Assembly (NCBI GenBank): GCA_023061495.1
Contig: GCA_023061495.1_3643.1
Direction: 5' to 3' (one strand)
DNA: 64,000 nt
From: Escherichia coli
Lineage (GTDB): Bacteria; Pseudomonadota; Gammaproteobacteria; Enterobacterales; Enterobacteriaceae
Below, in pieces: positions 26,712 to 37,672 of this stretch. Positions within the stretch are counted from its first letter, which is position 1; the number at the start of each line of letters is the position of its first letter. Below the pieces are notes generated by a model. It searched no databases. It saw only the letters and a list, made by a program, of their open reading frames with translations, and was not told the DNA's origin. Position numbers and translations under genes: made by a program.

Positions 26712-27191
26712 TTAATCCAGTACTGTGCCTCCGGCTTTTCGGAAGACGTCCAGCATCTTCTCTATGTTTTCTACACGCTGATCATACAGTTTACCAGCCC
26801 CCGGTGGTGGTGGGAAACTTGCCCAACGGCTACGGCATTTATAGATAGCTGAACGGATCCTTCCTTCATAAATGTCATCAAGGGCTTTACATTCGCGGAT
26901 CAACTGTTTTGCTATGGCATCCTGACTTGCCGGACCAAAATCTCTTAAGCCAAGCTGCTTCATGTAATGCTTAGCGTATTTCTCCAGAATTTGGTATCTG
27001 CCAAATGCTGAAGAGGTAAGGCCCGGTCTTAATTTGACATAAATACCGGGATGCCTGCTGAGATCCTCTATGTATTTTCCACCAACAAGGATGTGGTACG
27101 AAGCATCTTCGCCACCATACCTGTCAGTACCTTCTGAGTGTGAAATCATCGAAAAAAATGCTCTCAATTGTACATTTTTATCTAGCTTCAT
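26712..27191 (-). CDS. endolysin, lambda R-like lytic transglycosylase
   Basis: strong resemblance to recalled lambda R: F.MISHSEGTD, GRYQ, KQLGLRDF, RW/IWASFP.PGAG, AGGTV at C-terminus. Confidence 0.8.
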   Translation of the reverse strand: MKLDKNVQLRAFFSMISHSEGTDRYGGEDASYHILVGGKYIEDLSRHPGIYVKLRPGLTSSAFGRYQILEKYAKHYMKQLGLRDFGPASQDAIAKQLIRECKALDDIYEGRIRSAIYKCRSRWASFPPPPGAGKLYDQRVENIEKMLDVFRKAGGTVLD

Positions 27192-27904
27192 TTAAACCTC
27201 CGATTAAACCACTCTTCCAACGAATCATCATGTTTTGCATATTCTGCGGATTTTCTGACGCATACAGCATCCCACCACTCCGTGTATTGCCCCAAATGAT
27301 ACCTTTTGCTGTTTTCAGCAATCTGAACTTGCCACTTGTCAGTATCGTGTCTCCATTTAACACCTGTACACCCAGATGTGTTATTAAGTTTTAGTATTTT
27401 GCCTTTATAAGTACCTGAAACTAGCTGTTTTCTTGCCTCTACAGCCTCATCTTTGGTCTTAAAGTACCCAGCAAACCTATCTCCTTCGAGGGTGTTATAT
27501 ACTGCATACCATAAACCACATTTCTTATAAACTCCTAAGTTACCGTGCGGGTTATTTTTCGGGAGTAAATTATTTCTTATACGGTCCTTGTTGTTATCAC
27601 TGTAGGTGCCCATAGAAAGATTTTCTATATTATCCTGGCCTTTTATATCATTTAAATGCCTGACAAGAAAGTTTTTTGTTAAAGAGTTATAAAACATGTC
27701 GTAAATAATTCTATGACGCTTCTTATCACCACCTTTATGAGAGTTGATTATAACATACCCTTGTGCATCATTACAACCAGCTTTTGTGCCAGCTTTTATG
27801 AAGAGTTGATTTTTACCTCGGCCTCTATAATGATTCTTTGTCCAAACTAGCTCCCCATCTTTGTACCAAAATGCAAAATTATCATTGAAGAAGAAATTAA
27901 TCAT
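27188..27904 (-). CDS. HNH homing endonuclease with AP2-like DNA-binding domain
   Basis: HNH core GYVIINSHKG...HRIIY...VRHLND; C-terminal AP2-like GVKWRHDTDKWQVQI; N-terminus abuts assembly gap so start may be incomplete. Confidence 0.65.
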   Translation of the reverse strand: MINFFFNDNFAFWYKDGELVWTKNHYRGRGKNQLFIKAGTKAGCNDAQGYVIINSHKGGDKKRHRIIYDMFYNSLTKNFLVRHLNDIKGQDNIENLSMGTYSDNNKDRIRNNLLPKNNPHGNLGVYKKCGLWYAVYNTLEGDRFAGYFKTKDEAVEARKQLVSGTYKGKILKLNNTSGCTGVKWRHDTDKWQVQIAENSKRYHLGQYTEWWDAVCVRKSAEYAKHDDSLEEWFNRRFK

Positions 27905-27914
27905 TTTTTTTTTA

Positions 27915-28011
27915 NNNNNNNNNNNNNNNNNNNNNNNNNNNNNNNNNNNNNNNNNNNNNNNNNNNNNNNNNNNNNNNNNNNNNNNNNNNNNNNNNNNNNN
28001 NNNNNNNNNNN
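27915..28011. other. assembly gap (97 N) flanked by homopolymer T runs
   Basis: literal N run in sequence. Confidence 0.95.
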
Positions 28012-28167: not shown

Positions 28168-29451
28168 TTATTCCAGCACCTCCCAAGTGTCTGGGTTAAC
28201 ATTTCGGACGCAGATACCGACAGGGAATTGGTAGTTGTTGTCTTCTGTCCTTGCTTGATATTTGAAGGTGACAAACTTGCCGATCATTTCCTGCATCCTG
28301 TCATAGCTACGCTCCTCGTGCGTACCTTTCATCTTCATTTTAACAACAATACCTTCCTTGTCAACACAGATAAGAACACCTTCATCATTCTTATCTTTCT
28401 CAACGTCAATAACTTTCACCTCAGCATCGTTGAACTTTTTCCATTTCAATGCTTCAGATGTTCGCTGACCGTATTCGTATTTACCACAGAAGTTACGCAT
28501 GATAGTACCTTCATACCCTTCGGACATGAATACACCGACAGATTCTTCGCAATGATCAACTGTGTACGCAAGCTCTGCGTCAACAACCTTGATATGGTCA
28601 AGCATCAGAGTGGTAATGGTATCTTCTACATCCATAAGATCCTTGCAGCGTCCAGATTCTGTTTCTGGATCCCACCACACCTTGTCACTAGGAATATCAA
28701 AAATGTGATACTCTAGATCGTAGCTACAGTACCCACCGTAACGCAAATCATCACGAACAGGCTCAACATCAACAGGAATATCTACCTTGTTGAAGTTTTT
28801 GTATGTTGATAAGCCTGCCTTAATTGCGGCATGACGTCGTTTTTTATCTGCCTCGTAGTCTTTATCGATCTCGGCCTGAATCTCTTCCTGTGTGCGCCAC
28901 CGTTTAGCAAGAGACACTATTTTCTGCAGAGGCAGACCATGAATATAGATCTCTCCGTCGAGCTGTTTAATCCCGGTGGTGAAGTGGAAAGAACGAAGTT
29001 GCTCCAGAAGCTTTCCTTGAATAGGGTAGGACTTATTACCACGGGAAATAAATTTAGGCTCACCATTTTGGAAAACAACAAGTAGACGAAGGCCATCTAA
29101 CTTACGCAAGATCCAGCAAGGTAATTTAAGTGCCTTTCCACGCTTCAGGTAGTCATGCACCAGCATGGGTAAAAGGTCAACACCCTGCTCGCAATCTTCC
29201 ATATTTTCAACATACCCCAGACGGACTTGTTTTTCCCACTTACTGATCGCTTCCAGCTCAGCCTGTTGCTCAGCTGTAGTTTCATTGGCACGACCCACAT
29301 TCTTAGGTGTGCAGATCGTCTCTTTGTATTGCAGTTTACCATCAAGCTTGCCAAACTCTACGATAACCTTATCACCATCCGTGAATACTTTCCACTGTTG
29401 GTAGCTGCCATCTTTGTTCAGTGCGTACAGTGTTGTTTTGATCTGATGCAT
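28168..29451 (-). CDS. ATP-dependent DNA ligase
   Basis: adenylation motif I KLDG (WILRKLDGLRLLVVF), ligase-like size. Confidence 0.8.
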   Translation of the reverse strand: MHQIKTTLYALNKDGSYQQWKVFTDGDKVIVEFGKLDGKLQYKETICTPKNVGRANETTAEQQAELEAISKWEKQVRLGYVENMEDCEQGVDLLPMLVHDYLKRGKALKLPCWILRKLDGLRLLVVFQNGEPKFISRGNKSYPIQGKLLEQLRSFHFTTGIKQLDGEIYIHGLPLQKIVSLAKRWRTQEEIQAEIDKDYEADKKRRHAAIKAGLSTYKNFNKVDIPVDVEPVRDDLRYGGYCSYDLEYHIFDIPSDKVWWDPETESGRCKDLMDVEDTITTLMLDHIKVVDAELAYTVDHCEESVGVFMSEGYEGTIMRNFCGKYEYGQRTSEALKWKKFNDAEVKVIDVEKDKNDEGVLICVDKEGIVVKMKMKGTHEERSYDRMQEMIGKFVTFKYQARTEDNNYQFPVGICVRNVNPDTWEVLE

Positions 29452-29720
29452 TACTCAGCCTCTTCCTTAAAAATTTTAAACATCTCTTCTTTGCTCATTA
29501 CCAACCAGTCTCCCATAAAGTCAACTAACCAATCCCCTTGGTACAAGACCAGGTTACCAAACGGCTCGACAAGCTCACACATGCGAAGAATATCTCTGGT
29601 TCGAACAGGTGACGATGTAAACACACCTGTATCAATCCACCGTTGCAGATCAGATACTGATGAAGAGCTTCCGTCAAACTGGTGTGCTTCTACAGGTTTA
29701 GCAAGATTAAATAACGGCAT
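29451..29720 (-). CDS. hypothetical protein
   Basis: 89-aa ORF, start/stop overlap. Confidence 0.45.
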   Translation of the reverse strand: MPLFNLAKPVEAHQFDGSSSSVSDLQRWIDTGVFTSSPVRTRDILRMCELVEPFGNLVLYQGDWLVDFMGDWLVMSKEEMFKIFKEEAE

Positions 29721-30015
29721 TGCAGTCCTCCTTCTCTAATAGGTCTTTTATCGGGTAAACAAGCAGGTGCGGATCGTAATAACTTATAGTCTTATTCTGC
29801 CACACTATGAACTTAATTACAACTAAATTTACCACATCTTTATCCCCATGTAGTCCAACACACAAATTTGTCCATATTTTGTGGTTGAATACTTTGCTGT
29901 CGATGTAGATCTTAGTGTCAAACTTATCCTCTATCCTACCTATAAGTTTAACCAATTCTTTCATCTGATCACCAAACACAGCATCGTTTTCAAGATCTCT
30001 GGAGTGCTTGTACAT
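29707..30015 (-). CDS. hypothetical protein
   Basis: 102-aa ORF. Confidence 0.45.
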   Translation of the reverse strand: MYKHSRDLENDAVFGDQMKELVKLIGRIEDKFDTKIYIDSKVFNHKIWTNLCVGLHGDKDVVNLVVIKFIVWQNKTISYYDPHLLVYPIKDLLEKEDCNAVI

Positions 30016-30079
30016 AACTTTCTACCTCACTTGCATACTTTCCGAAACAAGTAAAGCCGGGATCGCCCCGGCTATGTTA

Positions 30080-30793
30080 TTAAATATATTCTGTTACATC
30101 CTTGAAGCTTGAAGGCTTCATAATCTTACCTTTACTGTCGAGGAATATGATAACTTTATTTCCGTTGTAGAATTCTTCTTTAGCAACAAAACCTTCATAG
30201 CGACCATCAAAGCGTCGCTCAAGATCTTTAATCTCCAACTCGATGAGTTGTTCAGCAGGCATATCTGCACTGGCACCGTGTGAATACCGCAGATGGTTGA
30301 CGCGTGCAAACTTGCTGTCATTAGATTTTAGAACTTTCCGCATCATCCCGCACACATCACCGCGAAGCTGGAACAGCAAAGCTGTTGACAACTCTGCTAA
30401 GCGGTAAGCAGACGCTCTTTGCTTAGAGGTATTTTTAGCAGCGATCAGTGTATCATAAAATTCACCGATCTTAAACTTAAGACCTCGCGGATTATCAAAC
30501 AGGTTTGACCACTTTTCATGGTTATCGTTAACAAGATAGGCGGCATAACTTGTGACAACGTGAAGATCGCAGGCCTCTTTTAGGAGATGATCCCCACCAT
30601 CACCTTTCTCCAACTCTTCCAAAACTTCATTGAACTCTTCCTCAATGAAACTAAGTTGGAGTTCGAATGGTGTGTATGATTTTTTCACTTTAGCTGCTAC
30701 ACGGTTCCAATTTTCCACCCAGTTGGCAGACCAAAGGTAGTTTTCAGGTTGAGACAGTTTTTCCAGGTTGTCGATCAGTTTAGTATTCAGCAT
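30080..30793 (-). CDS. hypothetical protein (possible MazG-like all-alpha NTP pyrophosphohydrolase domain)
   Basis: acidic helix cluster IEEEFNEVLEELEKGDGGDHLLKEACDL reminiscent of MazG E-x2-E/D metal-binding helices; weak. Confidence 0.35.
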   Translation of the reverse strand: MLNTKLIDNLEKLSQPENYLWSANWVENWNRVAAKVKKSYTPFELQLSFIEEEFNEVLEELEKGDGGDHLLKEACDLHVVTSYAAYLVNDNHEKWSNLFDNPRGLKFKIGEFYDTLIAAKNTSKQRASAYRLAELSTALLFQLRGDVCGMMRKVLKSNDSKFARVNHLRYSHGASADMPAEQLIELEIKDLERRFDGRYEGFVAKEEFYNGNKVIIFLDSKGKIMKPSSFKDVTEYI

Positions 30794-30807
30794 TAGAAGG
30801 CCTCCGC

Positions 30808-31569
30808 TTACAGTTCCATAAAGTTTTCTACGATGTCAATAAATGTTTTATCAGAGAAAGCATCAACCGCCCCGTTAAACCAAACTGGGATGCCGCGATC
30901 CTCGTACTGGTAAATGTCACTACGTGAAATGCCATTCTCCCATAAATGCTGTGAGTCGTATTTGTTAACGATCAGTAGTTTAGTCCCATTATTACAGGCA
31001 GGGAATAGCTCCCAGTTAAAATTGATAACTGTGTTGGAACACCCTACAAGGATAACCATATCATTGCTCGTCAGAGAAGTCAACAGGTCATACATGTCTG
31101 TATATTTTGGAGCTACTTCTCCGAAGAACACTACATTAGGCTTGACCCAAGTATACTCGCTTGCATCTACCTCAGAGTATCCAATGTCTTTAATGACGTC
31201 ACTCCCTTCATCATCCTCATAGACTATTTCTGGCAAATATCCGTGGACATGTAAAATATCTTCATGTTTTACACCAGCACGCTCCAGCAAATCATCTACA
31301 TTGGTGGTCAGGTTGATCACACGACCAGACCAGCGGGAATACCACTCAGCGATCCGGAGATGTGCAAGGTTAGGCTCAACACTCCCCAAAGCTACACGAC
31401 GTGCATTGTAAAAGTCATGCACCTTATAGTAGTTCTTGGTAAAGGTGTGGATGTTACACACCTCATCGATGCTGAAATTCTCCCACATTGCAGTGCCACC
31501 AGATCGGAAAGTGGGGATACCAGATTCAGCGCTCAAACCAGCACCGGAGATAATGATCAGTCGTCGCAT
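30808..31569 (-). CDS. Sir2-family (sirtuin-like) NAD-binding protein, no obvious Zn ribbon
   Basis: Sir2 signature ISGAGLSAESGIPTFRSGG, later TTNVD and HVHG; no CxxC pairs where sirtuin Zn ribbon normally sits. Confidence 0.7.
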   Translation of the reverse strand: MRRLIIISGAGLSAESGIPTFRSGGTAMWENFSIDEVCNIHTFTKNYYKVHDFYNARRVALGSVEPNLAHLRIAEWYSRWSGRVINLTTNVDDLLERAGVKHEDILHVHGYLPEIVYEDDEGSDVIKDIGYSEVDASEYTWVKPNVVFFGEVAPKYTDMYDLLTSLTSNDMVILVGCSNTVINFNWELFPACNNGTKLLIVNKYDSQHLWENGISRSDIYQYEDRGIPVWFNGAVDAFSDKTFIDIVENFMEL

Positions 31570-31577
31570 AAGTGTCC

Positions 31578-31928
31578 TCAGTAGATGTTTTGTTTAATCT
31601 CTATTCCAAACTTTTTAAACGAGTCAGCAGCAAGCATGAATTTACGAGCCGCTGATGGGTTAGAAGTATGCACGAAAATCTTCACGTTGTCAACTACAGG
31701 AGGCTTACCAAATACAAATTTTTCCTCCAGCATGGATAGGCAATCGTACCCTTCAAATACCTCTCCGAGATCGTTGTCCATGTGCCACTCAGAAACGCGC
31801 CTGTAGAGCTTTCCCTTATCGTTAATAAAATCCATAAACTCGGAGGAATTCTTTAGCCAAAGAGCATCTGGGAGCCCATAATTTGACGGATCTCTCAAGT
31901 CATCCAGCCACACAATCAACTTCTTCAT
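31578..31928 (-). CDS. hypothetical protein
   Basis: 116-aa ORF between RNA ligase and Sir2 genes. Confidence 0.45.
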   Translation of the reverse strand: MKKLIVWLDDLRDPSNYGLPDALWLKNSSEFMDFINDKGKLYRRVSEWHMDNDLGEVFEGYDCLSMLEEKFVFGKPPVVDNVKIFVHTSNPSAARKFMLAADSFKKFGIEIKQNIY

Positions 31929-32860
31929 TGCATATAGTCCTCGTTGTAGAAATAGCAGTCAAGTATCTCACGGCGTTCCTGTTCCAGGAGGCAATTCCAC
32001 ACATCTTCTGTGTAGTTTCTACGAATGAAGTTTACCATGCCGTAAAACTCTTCGTCAACACGCTTAAAGATATCATCATCCCAAATCTTCCAAGCTCTCC
32101 CTCTCATCACGGCCTTCCGTGCCAGATAGTATGGAGACTTGATCTTCAGTTGCAGGTCATAAGGGTAGTAAGGTTTACGGATCATATACCCTTCGCCCCT
32201 TGTTTCTGCAGCCAACTCTTTTGCATGGCTGAACGGAATTTCACGCACAGTGTGAGGACGTTTTGCACCAAGGTATTTGGCAATCCAGTCTAAAGCTGCT
32301 TCTGGCAGCATTATTCCAGAATCATTGTATCGGCAACCGATCAAATAGGCACCATGATCTTCCTGAACAATATGCGGATCTGAAGGATGGCAAATTTCAA
32401 ACATAAATGTCATATTTTCATTTCCCATAACCTTCTTGATAAGATCTAAATTACCACATTGATCCTGGATGGTTTCCTTTGCGAGATTACAATATGGGGA
32501 ATCAAGAGATCCGGTTGTTGAGAATAATAGTTCACCTTTATGAGAGGATACCACGCCAAGGAATCCGTTCTTTTTCTCTACCGCCGTCACAAGCTTATTG
32601 TCAGGCAGGTTGGTGGAGTTTTCTCCCAAGTTAAACACTTTTGTGAAGGGCCATGCCACAACATTTCCTTCATTACCGACAACAATGCCACGGCACTCCA
32701 GTAGACGCGGAGACAAATGCCATAGATTGTTGTAGAATACTTTTCTGGCATATTTGTAGATCTTTAATCCAAGATCTGGATAATACCGACTGGTTACAAG
32801 ACCTTTATCCACTAAATCATCTGCATTAAAATACTTCATCATACATTCCTCGTTTGTCAT
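31925..32860 (-). CDS. RNA ligase-like nucleotidyltransferase
   Basis: covalent nucleotidyltransferase motifs: I KxNG (VEKKNGFLGV), IV EGYMI, V LQLKIK; distinct from the DNA ligase at 28168..29451. Confidence 0.6.
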   Translation of the reverse strand: MTNEECMMKYFNADDLVDKGLVTSRYYPDLGLKIYKYARKVFYNNLWHLSPRLLECRGIVVGNEGNVVAWPFTKVFNLGENSTNLPDNKLVTAVEKKNGFLGVVSSHKGELLFSTTGSLDSPYCNLAKETIQDQCGNLDLIKKVMGNENMTFMFEICHPSDPHIVQEDHGAYLIGCRYNDSGIMLPEAALDWIAKYLGAKRPHTVREIPFSHAKELAAETRGEGYMIRKPYYPYDLQLKIKSPYYLARKAVMRGRAWKIWDDDIFKRVDEEFYGMVNFIRRNYTEDVWNCLLEQERREILDCYFYNEDYMQ

Positions 32861-32903
32861 TTTGTCACTCTATCTTGCCACACAAATAAACCCGTGTCAA
32901 CAC

Positions 32904-32932
32904 TTGAAATGAACAAAATAGTTATGTATAGT
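32904..32932 (+). promoter_or_regulatory. sigma70-like promoter (TTGAAA-N17-TATAGT)
   Basis: -35 at 32904..32909, -10 at 32927..32932, followed by GGAGG RBS and ATG at 32966. Confidence 0.5.
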
Positions 32933-32965
32933 ATACTATCATTAAAATTAAAACGGAGGATTGCT

Positions 32966-33376
32966 ATGTCTAAAATGCTATATATCGTGCGTGGTCTACC
33001 AGGTTCTGGCAAATCAACACTGGCAAATGCACTATCTTTAGAAGGGCTGTATCCACATTTTGAGAACGACATGTTCTGGTACGACGACGATGGAAATTAC
33101 AACTGGGATGCAAGTAAAGTAACACTTGCAGCAAAATGGTGCAAAGATAACGTAGAAGATATGATGCATATGGGATACGACCGTATCGTGGTAAGCAACA
33201 CATTCACAAAAGAAAAACATGTGCAAGAGTATGTTGACATGGCTATCCGTCATGGGTATAGTTACACCGTAATCGTGGTTGAAAACAGGCACGGTAACAA
33301 AAGCATCCATAATGTTCCTGATAAGGTTGTGGATCGTATGGAGCGCGAGCTTAAAAACTGCATTAAACTTAAGTGA
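32966..33376 (+). CDS. polynucleotide 5'-kinase (P-loop, Pnk-like)
   Basis: N-terminal P-loop RGLPGSGKSTLA as in T4 Pnk kinase domain; start moved from ORF-track 32894 to RBS-supported ATG at 32966. Confidence 0.65.
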   Translation: MSKMLYIVRGLPGSGKSTLANALSLEGLYPHFENDMFWYDDDGNYNWDASKVTLAAKWCKDNVEDMMHMGYDRIVVSNTFTKEKHVQEYVDMAIRHGYSYTVIVVENRHGNKSIHNVPDKVVDRMERELKNCIKLK

Positions 33377-33383
33377 GGAATGC

Positions 33384-33938
33384 ATGAAATATTTTGTAAC
33401 AAGCGACACACACTTTCTCCACCAGCGGGTTATGGAGTTTGATTCATGTCAAAAGCACCGATCTCAGTATAATAGCAATCTTGACAGTATGAACGAAGGA
33501 ATCATCGCAGAGTGGAACTCTGTTGTATCACCGGAAGACACTGTGTTTCACTTGGGTGATATTGCATGCACTAAGGATAAGAATATCAACAACTTACTTC
33601 CAGATATTCTAAATATGTTGAACGGACATATTATTCTTGTTAGAGGAAACCATGACACAAGGACTACTGTAAGAATTATGAAAGAGTTCGGTCATGATGT
33701 TGTAGATTATTACGAGCTTAGACACAACAAAAATTTGATCTGCATGAGTCATTACCAATTCGCAACATGGAACCGCAAGCCCCACGGATCAGTTCAACTA
33801 TTCGGTCATGCTCACGGAACCACACAACAGTTGTTTGGCAGGCAGTTTGATGTAGGTTGGGATGTGTGGGGGAGACTGTTACCATTAGAAGAGGCATATA
33901 GCATTGCAATGTGTTTTGATATTGACAGCAGGGAGTAA
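33384..33938 (+). CDS. calcineurin-like metallophosphoesterase
   Basis: motifs SDTHF (D-x-H), HLGDIA (GD), RGNHD (GNHD/E); start at RBS-supported ATG 33384. Confidence 0.7.
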   Translation: MKYFVTSDTHFLHQRVMEFDSCQKHRSQYNSNLDSMNEGIIAEWNSVVSPEDTVFHLGDIACTKDKNINNLLPDILNMLNGHIILVRGNHDTRTTVRIMKEFGHDVVDYYELRHNKNLICMSHYQFATWNRKPHGSVQLFGHAHGTTQQLFGRQFDVGWDVWGRLLPLEEAYSIAMCFDIDSRE

Positions 33939-36858: not shown

Positions 36859-36933
36859 GCCCTGTTAGCTTAGTGGATAAAGCAGCGGCCTTCTAAGCCG
36901 TTGACACTGGTTCGAGTCCAGTACGGGGTGCCA
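36859..36933 (+). tRNA. tRNA-Arg (anticodon TCT)
   Basis: hand-folded cloverleaf: acceptor GCCCTGT/ACGGGGT, anticodon loop CTTCTAA, T-arm ACTGG-TTCGAGT-CCAGT, encoded CCA. Confidence 0.75.
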
Positions 36934-36937
36934 AATT

Positions 36938-37024
36938 GGGGAGTTATCCCGTAGAGGTAGCGGTGTAGACTGTAAATCTATTGTCATTGCGACTCGGGTG
37001 GTTCGACTCCACCACTCCCCACCA
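36938..37024 (+). tRNA. tRNA-Tyr (anticodon GTA), long variable arm
   Basis: acceptor GGGGAGT/ACTCCCC perfect, anticodon loop CTGTAAA, long variable arm, T-loop TTCGACT, encoded CCA. Confidence 0.75.
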
Positions 37025-37138
37025 AATTTATAGTTTTAAATGCATAAATCATACAGATAATGGCATTTATATTTATCGTCGTTTATACTAGTCACTAACT
37101 GCTCGAAAATCAGTGTCATTATCAGTGTTGTTTATAAA

Positions 37139-37229
37139 TGAGGGTAGGGAGCAATGGTGCTCAAGCGGTCTTGAAAACCGTCCCGTTGAGGATGACTCGA
37201 TGATGGTTCGATTCCATTACCCTCAGCCA
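37139..37229 (+). tRNA. tRNA-Ser (anticodon TGA), long variable arm
   Basis: acceptor TGAGGGT/ACCCTCA perfect, anticodon loop CTTGAAA, about 20-nt variable arm, T-arm GATGG-TTCGATT-CCATT, encoded CCA. Confidence 0.7.
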
Positions 37230-37327
37230 TATTGTTGACCTTGTAATTAAGCGAAAGCCGGAAGCAGAACCGGATTATCAAATGTTACAGTCGTCATCGC
37301 CGACTAGCAACATGGTCAACATGCTGA

Positions 37328-37424
37328 GCTGGGTAAGCCCTTTGGCAAGGGCGAGGATTTTTAATCCTGAAAATAGACGAGGTAGTCGTTGAATACATAG
37401 GTGGTTCGATTCCATCACCTAGCA
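37328..37424 (+). tRNA. atypical tRNA-like gene; anticodon loop reads UUUUUAA (UUU, Lys-like) but about 30 nt lie between anticodon arm and T-arm
   Basis: acceptor GCTGGGT/ACCTAGC (one G-U), D-arm GCCC/GGGC, canonical T-arm GGTGG-TTCGATT-CCATC; fold not fully resolved by hand; no encoded CCA. Confidence 0.4.
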
Positions 37425-37432
37425 CCTTTTTT

Positions 37433-37508
37433 GCTGATGTAGCACAATTGGTAGTGCAATTGATTTGTAATCAATAGGTTGCAGGTTCAAGTCCTGCCAT
37501 CAGCACCA
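37433..37508 (+). tRNA. tRNA-Thr (anticodon TGT)
   Basis: acceptor GCTGATG/CATCAGC perfect, anticodon stem ATTGA/TCAAT with loop TTTGTAA, T-loop TTCAAGT, encoded CCA. Confidence 0.75.
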
Positions 37509-37509
37509 T

Positions 37510-37584
37510 GGCCCTGTAGCTGGAAGGTTCAAGCAAGCGACTCATAATCGCCAGATGGTGGTTCAATTCCACCCAGGGCCACCA
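37510..37584 (+). tRNA. tRNA-Met (anticodon CAT; could be initiator, elongator or Ile2-type)
   Basis: acceptor GGCCCTG/CAGGGCC perfect, anticodon loop CTCATAA, T-loop TTCAATT, encoded CCA. Confidence 0.7.
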
Positions 37585-37595
37585 AATAATAAATA

Positions 37596-37672
37596 CTCCG
37601 CGTAGCTCAGCTTGGTAGAGCGCCTGATTTGGGATCAGGAGGTCGAGTGTTCGAATCACTCCGTGGAGACCA
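37596..37672 (+). tRNA. tRNA-Pro (anticodon TGG)
   Basis: acceptor CTCCGCG/CGTGGAG, D-arm AGCTCAGCTTGGTAGAGC, anticodon stem CCTGA/TCAGG with loop TTTGGGA, T-loop TTCGAAT, encoded CCA. Confidence 0.8.

Follow-up and report, generated by a model that had tools for sequence, protein, structure and literature searches.

What does a bacteriophage do with a sirtuin that carries no zinc ribbon, and why should its gene lie among genes for enzymes that process the ends of RNA? The question is raised by a 64,000-nucleotide (nt) stretch of DNA recovered from Escherichia coli (assembly GCA_023061495.1, contig GCA_023061495.1_3643.1; hereafter the window), in which an open reading frame (ORF) on the minus strand, at 30808..31569, encodes a Sir2-family protein of 253 residues. 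The 6-kb stretch round this ORF is 92-97% identical to more than 110 genomes of rV5/FV3-like Vequintavirinae, and the window is an rV5/FV3-like Vequintavirus; the matching Vequintavirinae records label the ORF 'Sir2-like protein' or 'NAD-dependent deacetylase'. Our tentative reading is that the protein is the nicotinamide adenine dinucleotide (NAD+)-consuming enzyme of a phage RNA-end repair module, whose probable task is to mend tRNAs or other RNAs after cleavage by metal-independent (anticodon) nucleases of the host. The gene family, the cluster and the proposed role are already known, since the locus type and mechanism were published for the same phage lineage by Iyer et al. 2022, with whom, and not with the present analysis, the RNA-repair hypothesis originates. 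Our additions are incremental: the loss of the zinc-ligand cysteines together with a Gln to Thr exchange, the retention of a YxxR motif, the uniform acidity of the family, scores under the CobB equivalog cut-offs with no match to a defence-type SIR2 model, and a wider map of genomic contexts, among them one (beside phrog_8514) in which the sirtuin is detached from the repair genes, and T5-like and marine relatives near genes for RNA-repair HAD phosphatases, PTH2 or a NadR-like protein.

The assignment of 30808..31569 to the Sir2 superfamily lies far above chance. The ORF matches Pfam SIR2 (PF02146) at E=7e-27 and 94.9 bits (cut-off 24) over profile positions 1-178 of 180, phrog_2162 'Sir2' at E=3e-109, E. 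coli CobB (1s5p) at E=1e-21 and SIRT5 at 8e-21. An AlphaFold2 (AF2) model with a predicted local distance difference test (pLDDT) score of 90.2 was compared with known structures by Foldseek; CobB, Sir2-Af1 and SIRT5 rank first, with E-values from 2e-18 (CobB) to 1e-14 and template modelling (TM) scores of 0.7-0.84 (0.75-0.84 for CobB). The Sir2 Rossmann signature reported in the initial annotation, consisting of GAGLSAESGIPTFRSGG, TTNVD and HVHG, is present at residues 9-25, 88-92 and 107-110 respectively. The NCBIfam model 'NAD-dependent protein deacylase' is matched at 3e-35 and CobB-type deacylases are nearest, but the ORF scores under every curated NCBIfam CobB cut-off (121 vs 243 bits for NF001753, 103 vs 320 for NF040867 prot_deacyl_CobB, and likewise below for five other models). 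The family is widespread: a tblastn search found it in 984 of 50,697 deposited phage genomes, mainly of Escherichia, Salmonella, Klebsiella and Vibrio phages and usually already named Sir2. A metagenomic protein collection yielded 847 relatives at E<=1e-5, and an exhaustive profile search returned 7244 matches.

The zinc ribbon is where the protein departs from its relatives. As the initial annotation had noticed, there are no Cys pairs at the zinc-ribbon site: the only cysteines are at positions 38, 177 and 192, with none in residues 111-147, where CobB has its zinc ligands. Residue conservation was analysed over 120 homologues (48-98% identity), and no conserved Cys was found in any of the CobB zinc-ligand columns. 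Segment 111-147 is a degenerate rather than a deleted zinc ribbon, because the nearest four-Cys relatives align with it knuckle for knuckle around a common central 'IGY' motif. The AF2 model places three ordered strands here (110-118, 124-128 and 142-146 within residues 110-146; pLDDT ~95).

Both the structure and profile searches of the sirtuin and its neighbours and the check on the catalytic His and NAD pocket, as suggested at the outset, were carried out; His109, N90 and D92 proved invariant. The invariant set in the same 120 homologues further comprises G9-A10-G11, S16 and F21-R22 of the NAD-binding loop, F53-Y54-N55-x-R57-R58 (the YxxR motif of class III sirtuins, which aligns to the FYNARR segment of CobB), P66-N67..H70, the remainder of T89-N90-V91-D92 and of the catalytic H109-G110 pair, K143-P144, F148-F149-x-E151 and G176-x-S178. 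The Y-x-x-R pair in SIRT5 and CobB binds acidic acyl groups, and the protein is best described as derived from class III (CobB/SIRT5-like) sirtuins. The canonical Gln of TQNID, which contacts the NAD ribose, is Thr in 120/120 homologues (Q89T). Searching the literature for the SIRT5 mutant Q140L, which bears on the role of this Gln, yielded nothing.

Among the best 150 cluster representatives of the 7244 matches, 33 combine Thr with at most one Cys and 83 combine Gln with at least three, the mixed cases numbering 8 and 8. This association (Fisher p=3e-16, uncorrected for shared ancestry) indicates that the two changes mostly travel together, and they are not to be counted as independent events. 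A Cys-less member of the sirtuin branch with a TSNID motif (L094/L095, 7001-8659) is found on an ordinary bacterial chromosome, where it has TRAP and ABC transporter genes on its two sides and a Metallophos gene directly downstream; phages are thus not the sole carriers of the zinc-less form. The fusion partners of the nearest four-Cys relatives were considered as a functional lead and rejected as heterogeneous (tandem Sir2, WG repeats, GIY-YIG, LRR).

Together with the sirtuin, five neighbouring proteins could be identified within 30080..33938. The initial annotation had left both flanking genes as unknowns, and neither remains so. The gene at 31578..31928 (minus strand, 116 residues) encodes a cREC (cyclic-phosphate-processing receiver-like) domain protein, which matches Pfam cREC_REC (PF20274) at 4.5e-14 and 53.3 bits, above the cut-off of 27. 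The same domain is found in 52 of 54 homologues, and a receiver-type acidic pocket (D9, D10, D51, D53, T88, S89 and K96) is conserved in 40 sequences. On the other side, 30080..30793 (minus strand, 237 residues) encodes a protein of the MazG/all-alpha nucleoside triphosphate (NTP) pyrophosphohydrolase type, matching phrog_671 'nucleotide pyrophosphohydrolase' at 5e-22 and carrying a conserved C-terminal alpha/beta extension (residues ~175-237). The MazG-like acidic helix noticed earlier was confirmed as the metal-binding motif EExxE...ExxD (E52-E53-x-x-E56 ... E73-x-x-D76), invariant in 17 sequences. Pfam gave no match for the window protein, precomputed PF01503 matches exist for 3 of 16 homologues, and the AF2 prediction is moderately confident (pLDDT 74 for one of five models, the rest below 50; all-helical over residues 4-156). 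Foldseek comparison of this model was not significant (best E 0.97); phage dimeric dUTPases superpose best, with TM scores of 0.40/0.56. The MazG-like fold assignment is accordingly weak but consistent.

Upstream of cREC, 31925..32860 (minus strand, 311 residues) encodes an Rnl1-type (T4 gp63-like) ATP-dependent RNA ligase, with matches to Pfam RNA_lig_T4_1 (PF09511, 4.6e-15) and phrog_562 (4e-66). A ligase profile built from 13 homologues had T4 Rnl1 as its sole match in the PDB (2c5u, E=8e-9), with the adenylylation motif K96-x-N98-G99 aligned, and the protein scores under the NCBIfam T4 RnlA equivalog cut-off (37.7 vs 242 bits). Single-sequence PDB searches with the ligase, the MazG-like protein and cREC found no match. 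On the plus strand, 32966..33376 encodes a polynucleotide kinase (PNK)-type P-loop kinase of 136 residues, counted from the start codon (ATG) of the Basel record. It matches Pfam AAA_33 (7.8e-10), phrog_2071 (1e-57), phrog_505 'polynucleotide kinase' (9e-10) and the kinase portion of phrog_8238, a kinase-ligase fusion family (2e-5), and is annotated 'polynucleotide kinase' in MZ501061. It is followed at 33384..33938 (plus strand) by a calcineurin-like metallophosphoesterase of 184 residues (Pfam Metallophos, 8e-6; phrog_547 'phosphoesterase', 2e-51), whose closest solved relative is Aquifex aq_1665 (1xm7, 1e-9).

The minus-strand ORF series between 28.1 and 32.9 kb was found at the same coordinates as in the initial annotation. 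The ligase, cREC, sirtuin and MazG-like genes follow one another in that order with intergenic gaps of -4, 8 and 14 nt, the ligase and cREC genes overlapping by 4 nt. A GC-rich hairpin with a T-rich tail (30055..30073, minus strand) lies 7 nt past the MazG-like stop codon and is a candidate 3' boundary, although it is a consensus match only, terminator-like sites numbering 5 against 5.2 expected in shuffled sequence (no enrichment). Given the tight gaps and the trailing hairpin, these four genes form the likeliest co-transcribed unit. The hairpin probably parts them from the next three genes on the minus strand, namely orf102 (29707..30015; phrog_7684), orf89 (29451..29720; phrog_14585) and an ATP-dependent DNA ligase (28168..29451, from Pfam/PHROG profile searches). 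The sirtuin gene had been described as co-transcribed between the RNA ligase and the DNA ligase genes; the placement holds, but co-transcription as far as the DNA ligase is unproven, with the hairpin lying between. The kinase and metallophosphoesterase genes diverge from the ligase unit across a 105-nt spacer.

We surveyed the genomic context of related genes at 64 viral loci seeded on Sir2 and 17 seeded on cREC, using local profile searches, and recognised four classes. The first (class A, ~15 loci) comprises Vequintavirinae and ~145-kb PVPSE1-like phages, in which Sir2 lies within a block of Rnl1, cREC, kinase, Metallophos, MazG-like, DNA ligase, orf89 and orf102 genes. The gene set is kept at 45-60% protein identity while order and strand are shuffled (at L023 all genes are co-directional), and such rearrangement of a kept set argues for selection on proximity. 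In the PVPSE1-like phages orf102, orf89 and the DNA ligase recur inside the block in another order at 30-55% identity, and these co-travelling genes may be further parts of the repair module. The second (class B, ~33 T5-like loci) has Sir2 with HAD_SAK_2 and two DUF7415 genes in 30 cases and with DUF7415 only in 3. In phage T5 itself, T5.102 (Sir2) lies three small genes upstream of T5.105, a HAD_SAK_2 'Swiss Army Knife RNA repair' protein (4e-20), which is followed by T5.106 and T5.107. The latter two (L066, 7651-8481) are tandem DUF7415 proteins (E 3e-33 and 3e-30) that in every case follow the Sir2/HAD_SAK_2 pair in T5-like phages; DUF7415 proteins also stand beside Sir2, with no detectable HAD_SAK, at L029, L030 and L049.

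The third class (C) consists of ~150-kb phages with an intact repair block, from which Sir2 is separated by ~33 kb of the same contig. Here Sir2 is directly downstream of a gene for a ~215-residue protein, phrog_8514, unrelated to the repair block. Copies were located at L032:5237-5875, L034:4789-5454, L038:4748-5386, L043:5062-5733, L052:4839-5498 and L054:5035-5733; all five profiled copies match phrog_8514 and none has a Pfam match, and the L038 copy, outside those five, is 57% identical to that of L034. The protein has conserved acidic and aromatic positions; its identification as a 2H phosphoesterase was rejected, there being no conserved HxT/S pair. At four loci on the same IMG/VR contigs as L032-L035 (L074 and L076-L078, ~150 kb), the cREC/Metallophos/(Rnl1/kinase)/DNA ligase/MazG-like block has no adjoining Sir2, and two of the four lack Rnl1 and kinase. 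Since the block persists without Sir2 nearby, the MazG-like and DNA ligase genes evidently track the block and not the sirtuin. The metallophosphoesterase accompanies the block in every locus of classes A and C.

The last class (D) has mixed neighbours that include AAA_28, NAMPT/NAPRTase and Metallophos genes. Further, independent links come from distant Cys-less members. On a marine metagenomic contig (L087/L088, 7001-8888) a distant Cys-less Sir2 gene overlaps by 8 nt a downstream gene for a NadR-like protein of the nicotinamide mononucleotide adenylyltransferase/kinase type (389 residues; CTP_transf_like plus CoaE/AAA_18), with HAD_SAK_2 and Metallophos genes within 5 kb. On another (L089, 7001-8100) a distant Cys-less Sir2 overlaps a downstream PTH2 peptidyl-tRNA hydrolase gene by 4 nt. 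Both look like translationally coupled pairs, which connect NAD salvage and tRNA rescue with the sirtuin clade, and the NadR-like, NAMPT and AAA_28 genes near Sir2 members fit real NAD+ turnover. Five distant cREC loci (L079-L083) contained no other module gene by profile, save one Metallophos.

As KptA/Tpt1 is the known RNA 2'-phosphotransferase with which the sirtuin has been compared, its distribution was determined as well. KptA homologues were found in 98 phage records, mainly of jumbo phages, and the genera named in the tally include no Escherichia phages. A search seeded with E. coli KptA found none in any Sir2 or cREC locus surveyed. The KptA flanks in jumbo phages RAY, FBKp24 and pEa_SNUABM_32 consist of hypothetical genes, none matching the cREC, Rnl1, kinase, metallophosphoesterase, MazG or HAD_SAK profiles; Pfam recognised a radical SAM protein among them and gave two below-threshold matches, unrelated to RNA repair.

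According to Iyer et al. 2021 (PMC7824862), who defined the cREC domain, it is linked to RNA ligases and predicted to process cyclic phosphates. Iyer, Burroughs, Anantharaman and Aravind 2022 (Viruses 14:1977, PMC9503650, section 3.7.3) then described a sirtuin-centred phage RNA-repair neighbourhood, whose type 2, with Escherichia phage V5 and Proteus phage Mydo as prototypes, combines a sirtuin, a T4-like RNA ligase, cREC, a nucleotide kinase, a pyrophosphatase of the MazG superfamily and a calcineurin-like phosphoesterase. They proposed that the sirtuin removes RNA 2'-phosphates in the manner of KptA/Tpt1, with neighbours resolving cyclic phosphates or degrading the ADP-ribose (ADPr) cyclic phosphate ADPr>P, and argued from the lack of a Macro domain, a cyclic phosphodiesterase and a pyrophosphatase standing in its place. 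The window has the same six-gene set in the same phage lineage, and the locus itself shows no differences from type 2; their type 3, T5-like with a sirtuin and a HAD 'Swiss army knife', was recovered independently in our survey. The metallophosphoesterase, occasional in their account, is constant in the loci sampled here. The pairing of phrog_8514 with Sir2 is absent from the three neighbourhood types of that section, and the text makes no mention of zinc-site loss.

For the window we infer, as to both the chemistry and the RNA substrate, a scheme along the following lines. Cleavage by a host nuclease would produce ends with a 2',3'-cyclic phosphate and a 5'-OH; the cyclic phosphate would be opened by cREC and/or the metallophosphoesterase, the PNK-like kinase would phosphorylate the 5'-OH, and the Rnl1-type ligase would seal the break. 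Where a 2'-phosphate remained, the sirtuin would transfer ADP-ribose from NAD+ onto it, after which the ribose 2''-OH, activated by His109, would attack the phosphate, giving ADP-ribose 1'',2''-cyclic phosphate and nicotinamide. A Sir2 scaffold would thereby carry out the same two chemical steps as KptA/Tpt1. The cyclic product could then be linearised by cREC and cleaved by the MazG-like pyrophosphohydrolase.

Several lines argue for a role in RNA repair. The association with RNA-end enzymes, shuffled in order, recurs across at least four lineages, and Pfam and PHROG searches of the 10 proteins neighbouring Sir2 found no Macro domain, the usual partner in O-acyl-ADP-ribose or protein-ADP-ribose metabolism, which a predicted cyclic phosphodiesterase and pyrophosphatase appear to replace. 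Sirtuin and Tpt1 chemistry are alike, each involving attack on the nicotinamide-ribose C1'' and then attack from the 2''-OH, and this parallel, together with the invariance of the three catalytic and NAD-pocket residues named above, fits the proposed reaction. That KptA was unseen in the Sir2 and cREC loci, with no Escherichia phages among the genera named in its tally, and that a cluster of 7 tRNAs (36859-37672), an atypical tRNA-Lys(UUU) among them, lies ~3 kb from the repair module, are also counted in its favour. A considerable body of observations nevertheless weighs against it. The block already holds a full T4-style heal-and-seal kit (kinase, phosphoesterase and Rnl1), and it is not obvious why a 2'-phosphotransferase would be needed, because T4 Rnl1, the ligase's only solved relative, does without a 2'-phosphate. 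Guilt by association is weakened because phage early genes cluster by timing, and in the class C phages the sirtuin has parted from the block altogether. Relative to the four-Cys sirtuins, only Q89T, Y47 and the Cys loss set the clade apart, with no gain of basic or substrate-surface residues, and its isoelectric point is low (pI 4.68 for the window protein; median 5.14 and none above 7 in the 120 homologues; 7.1-9.4 in KptA proteins). Literature searches found no experimental study or follow-up. We list here too that the three KptA-bearing jumbo-phage loci lend no positional support to a displacement of KptA by Sir2, a result that in itself speaks neither for nor against.

Much of this would be expected of a protein lysine deacylase of the CobB/SIRT5 type, NAD+-dependent and probably acting as a desuccinylase, demalonylase or deacetylase, that removes inhibitory acyl groups from host or phage proteins; translation factors, aminoacyl-tRNA synthetases and lysine-adenylylating ligases are candidate targets. 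We consider this a serious contender, if also short of an even chance. The closest relatives by sequence, fold and NCBIfam model are true deacylases, and every residue that the reaction needs is invariant; the class III acyl-lysine features Y54-x-x-R57, F148/F149 and V181, the last three forming a hydrophobic tunnel, are what a protein desuccinylase or deacetylase would retain. An acidic enzyme suits basic protein substrates, the repair kit is self-sufficient, and in class C the sirtuin lies apart from the block; its place in the block would then stem from common early expression or from a theme of translation rescue, not from RNA chemistry, with the zinc ribbon turned into a zinc-independent beta-hairpin scaffold. 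O-acyl-ADP-ribose, too, can be cleared by Nudix- or MazG-type pyrophosphatases. Such an enzyme would, however, score far under all the curated CobB equivalog cut-offs, would have to work with a zinc module, part of the canonical peptide cleft, devoid of any ligand and with Thr in place of the ribose-contacting Gln throughout, and would have no acyltransferase or Macro partner nearby; it would leave the repeated association with RNA-end enzymes unaccounted for, in a host that already has CobB. The initial annotation had regarded an ordinary deacetylase with intact catalytic residues, a cryptic zinc site and unrelated housekeeping neighbours as the outcome that would overturn its view: the residues are intact and the protein groups with CobB and SIRT5 within the family, but a cryptic zinc site is lacking, the scores fall far under every curated CobB cut-off, and the neighbours process RNA ends.

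The initial annotation had also drawn on bacterial defence, in which Sir2 domains consume NAD, to suggest a counter-defence or NAD-manipulating module. The broader part of this stands, in that a phage-borne Sir2 with an NAD pocket, within a conserved module, plausibly handles NAD or ADP-ribose chemistry and counters host attack. The analogy with defence NADases does not: PADLOC defence models gave no SIR2 match (the best was an unrelated PDC model, E=0.0078, 13.5 bits), the nearest relatives and top structural matches are deacylases, and neither SLOG, HerA nor pAgo/APAZ partners were found among the neighbouring proteins by the Pfam and PHROG searches. An NAD+ glycohydrolase, or an enzyme of soluble ADPr metabolites serving counter-defence or host takeover with cREC and MazG processing the products, is improbable on these grounds. 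The intact NAD pocket, the NAD-salvage genes adjoining some relatives, and the prediction that cREC and MazG/Nudix neighbours act on soluble ADPr derivatives (PMC9503650) would agree with it, yet depleting NAD+ would be of little gain to a virulent phage that needs it, the kept YxxR motif and lysine-tunnel residues would go unexplained, and there is no fused sensor and no Macro, SLOG or TIR partner. A shade less probable again is modification of a host protein or nucleic acid by the sirtuin as an ADP-ribosyltransferase, or as an RNAylating enzyme that works with NAD-capped RNA, like the SirTM sirtuins or the T4 enzymes Alt/Mod. Sirtuins are capable of ADP-ribosylation (cited in PMC9503650), and the gene is carried by a phage and expressed among early genes; against this, no Macro partner and no likeness to class M sirtuins among the top matches were seen, and the strict conservation of the catalytic His and of YxxR speaks for a reaction in two steps with an anionic acceptor and not for simple transfer.

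On balance, RNA-end repair stands narrowly ahead of protein deacylation, the two being nearly tied, and sequence alone does not decide between them; the initial remark that one cannot distinguish deacylase, NADase and ADP-ribosyltransferase in this way still holds after all of these analyses. A more far-reaching form of the RNA-repair reading strikes us as rather doubtful. It would make the zinc-free, Thr-for-Gln clade a group of nucleic-acid-directed sirtuins, acting as an NAD+-dependent RNA 2'-phosphotransferase non-orthologous to Tpt1/KptA and, with cREC as a new cyclic phosphodiesterase, providing yeast-style tRNA repair against anticodon nucleases in rV5-, T5- and PVPSE1-like phages. Were it true, the Sir2 fold would acquire a new reaction class, with loss of the zinc ribbon marking the change of substrate.

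The cluster as rediscovered here corresponds to a published computational prediction, and interest now lies in the biochemistry of the sirtuin. Action on an RNA 2'-phosphate would make the enzyme the first sirtuin to have a nucleic acid as substrate, and one that replaces Tpt1 without being its orthologue; it would also account for the route by which large virulent coliphages (rV5-, T5- and phi92-like, many of them used in phage therapy or biocontrol) repair the damage of tRNA-cleaving defences. Protein deacylation, on the other hand, would make it a means by which the phage resets the acylome of its host, and a natural instance of a sirtuin that functions without zinc. In either case the residue signature (no ribbon Cys, TTNVD, YxxRR kept, acidic) offers a clean selector of family members and a guide to mutant design.

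Some further features of the window and its relatives were noted. Within the tRNA cluster, a 99-nt tRNA at 37328-37426 (plus strand) is atypical, having the anticodon loop UUUUUAA with anticodon UUU (Lys) and an extra arm of ~26 nt with its own hairpin. ARAGORN left it untyped, the Rfam tRNA model gives 33.7 bits (gathering threshold 29), its minimum free energy is -33.9 kcal/mol (z -3.1), and MZ501061 labels it a plain tRNA-Lys. The variable loop of tRNA-Lys is normally short, and tRNA-Lys(UUU) is a classic target of anticodon nucleases; the atypical copy could be a nuclease-resistant substitute tRNA near the repair module. Next to the DNA ligase gene, an HNH homing endonuclease (27188..27904, minus strand; phrog_99, 3e-36) with a C-terminal AP2-like repeat region (PF13392) lies between the endolysin and DNA ligase genes. 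It was found by tblastn in 4 of 65 loci and is missing from L002 at 93% identity; as only some relatives have the gene, it appears to be a mobile insertion. The 263-nt gap between it and the DNA ligase gene holds a run of 97 N bases (27915-28011) with T-runs on either side, representing masked or unresolved sequence. Among the matches to the Sir2 region, ~18-25 unannotated 'Campylobacter phage' records (host C. jejuni), including MG065635, MG065652, MG065653, MG065655, MG065662 and MG065672, are 92-97% identical to E. coli Vequintavirinae; it looks as though these host labels are doubtful, or the preparations contaminated.

Compared with known systems, the phage sirtuin is closest in sequence and fold to E. 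coli CobB and human SIRT5, with which it has in common the motifs GAGxSxxSGIxTFR, PNxxH, xNxD, HG and FGE and the Y-x-x-R pair. It differs from them in having no zinc-ligand Cys, Thr for the Gln of TQNID and GCSNxVINF for GTSxxVxP, in falling under all NCBIfam CobB cut-offs, and in being phage-encoded inside an RNA-repair block. With the defence SIR2 NADases (ThsA, DSR1/2, SIR2-HerA and SIR2-APAZ/pAgo) it shares the superfamily fold and NAD pocket; unlike these, it has no PADLOC match and no fused or adjacent sensor domain, belongs to a phage and not to the host, and has deacylases as its nearest relatives. KptA/Tpt1, which works with the Trl1 ligase and Cpd1 of yeast in fungal and plant tRNA splicing and repair, is proposed as a functional analogue only. 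By inference and following PMC9503650, the likeness would consist in the use of NAD+, with attack on C1'' and then by the 2''-OH, and in a set of ligase, kinase and cyclic phosphodiesterase that may mirror the tripartite logic of Trl1. The folds are unrelated (an ADP-ribosyltransferase fold, the PTS_2-RNA domain, in KptA/Tpt1 and a Rossmann Sir2 fold here), KptA is basic where the phage clade is acidic, and the phage ligase matches T4 Rnl1 and not Trl1 in the PDB search. The T4 Pnkp-Rnl1 pathway, which counters the PrrC anticodon nuclease, likewise unites an Rnl1-type ligase, a 5'-kinase and a 3'-end phosphoesterase in a virulent coliphage. In the window, by contrast, kinase and phosphatase are separate genes (AAA_33 and Metallophos, and not the HAD domain of Pnkp), the ligase is shorter than that of T4 (311 vs 374 residues) and far under the RnlA equivalog cut-off, and the cREC, Sir2 and MazG-like genes are additions to the T4 set.

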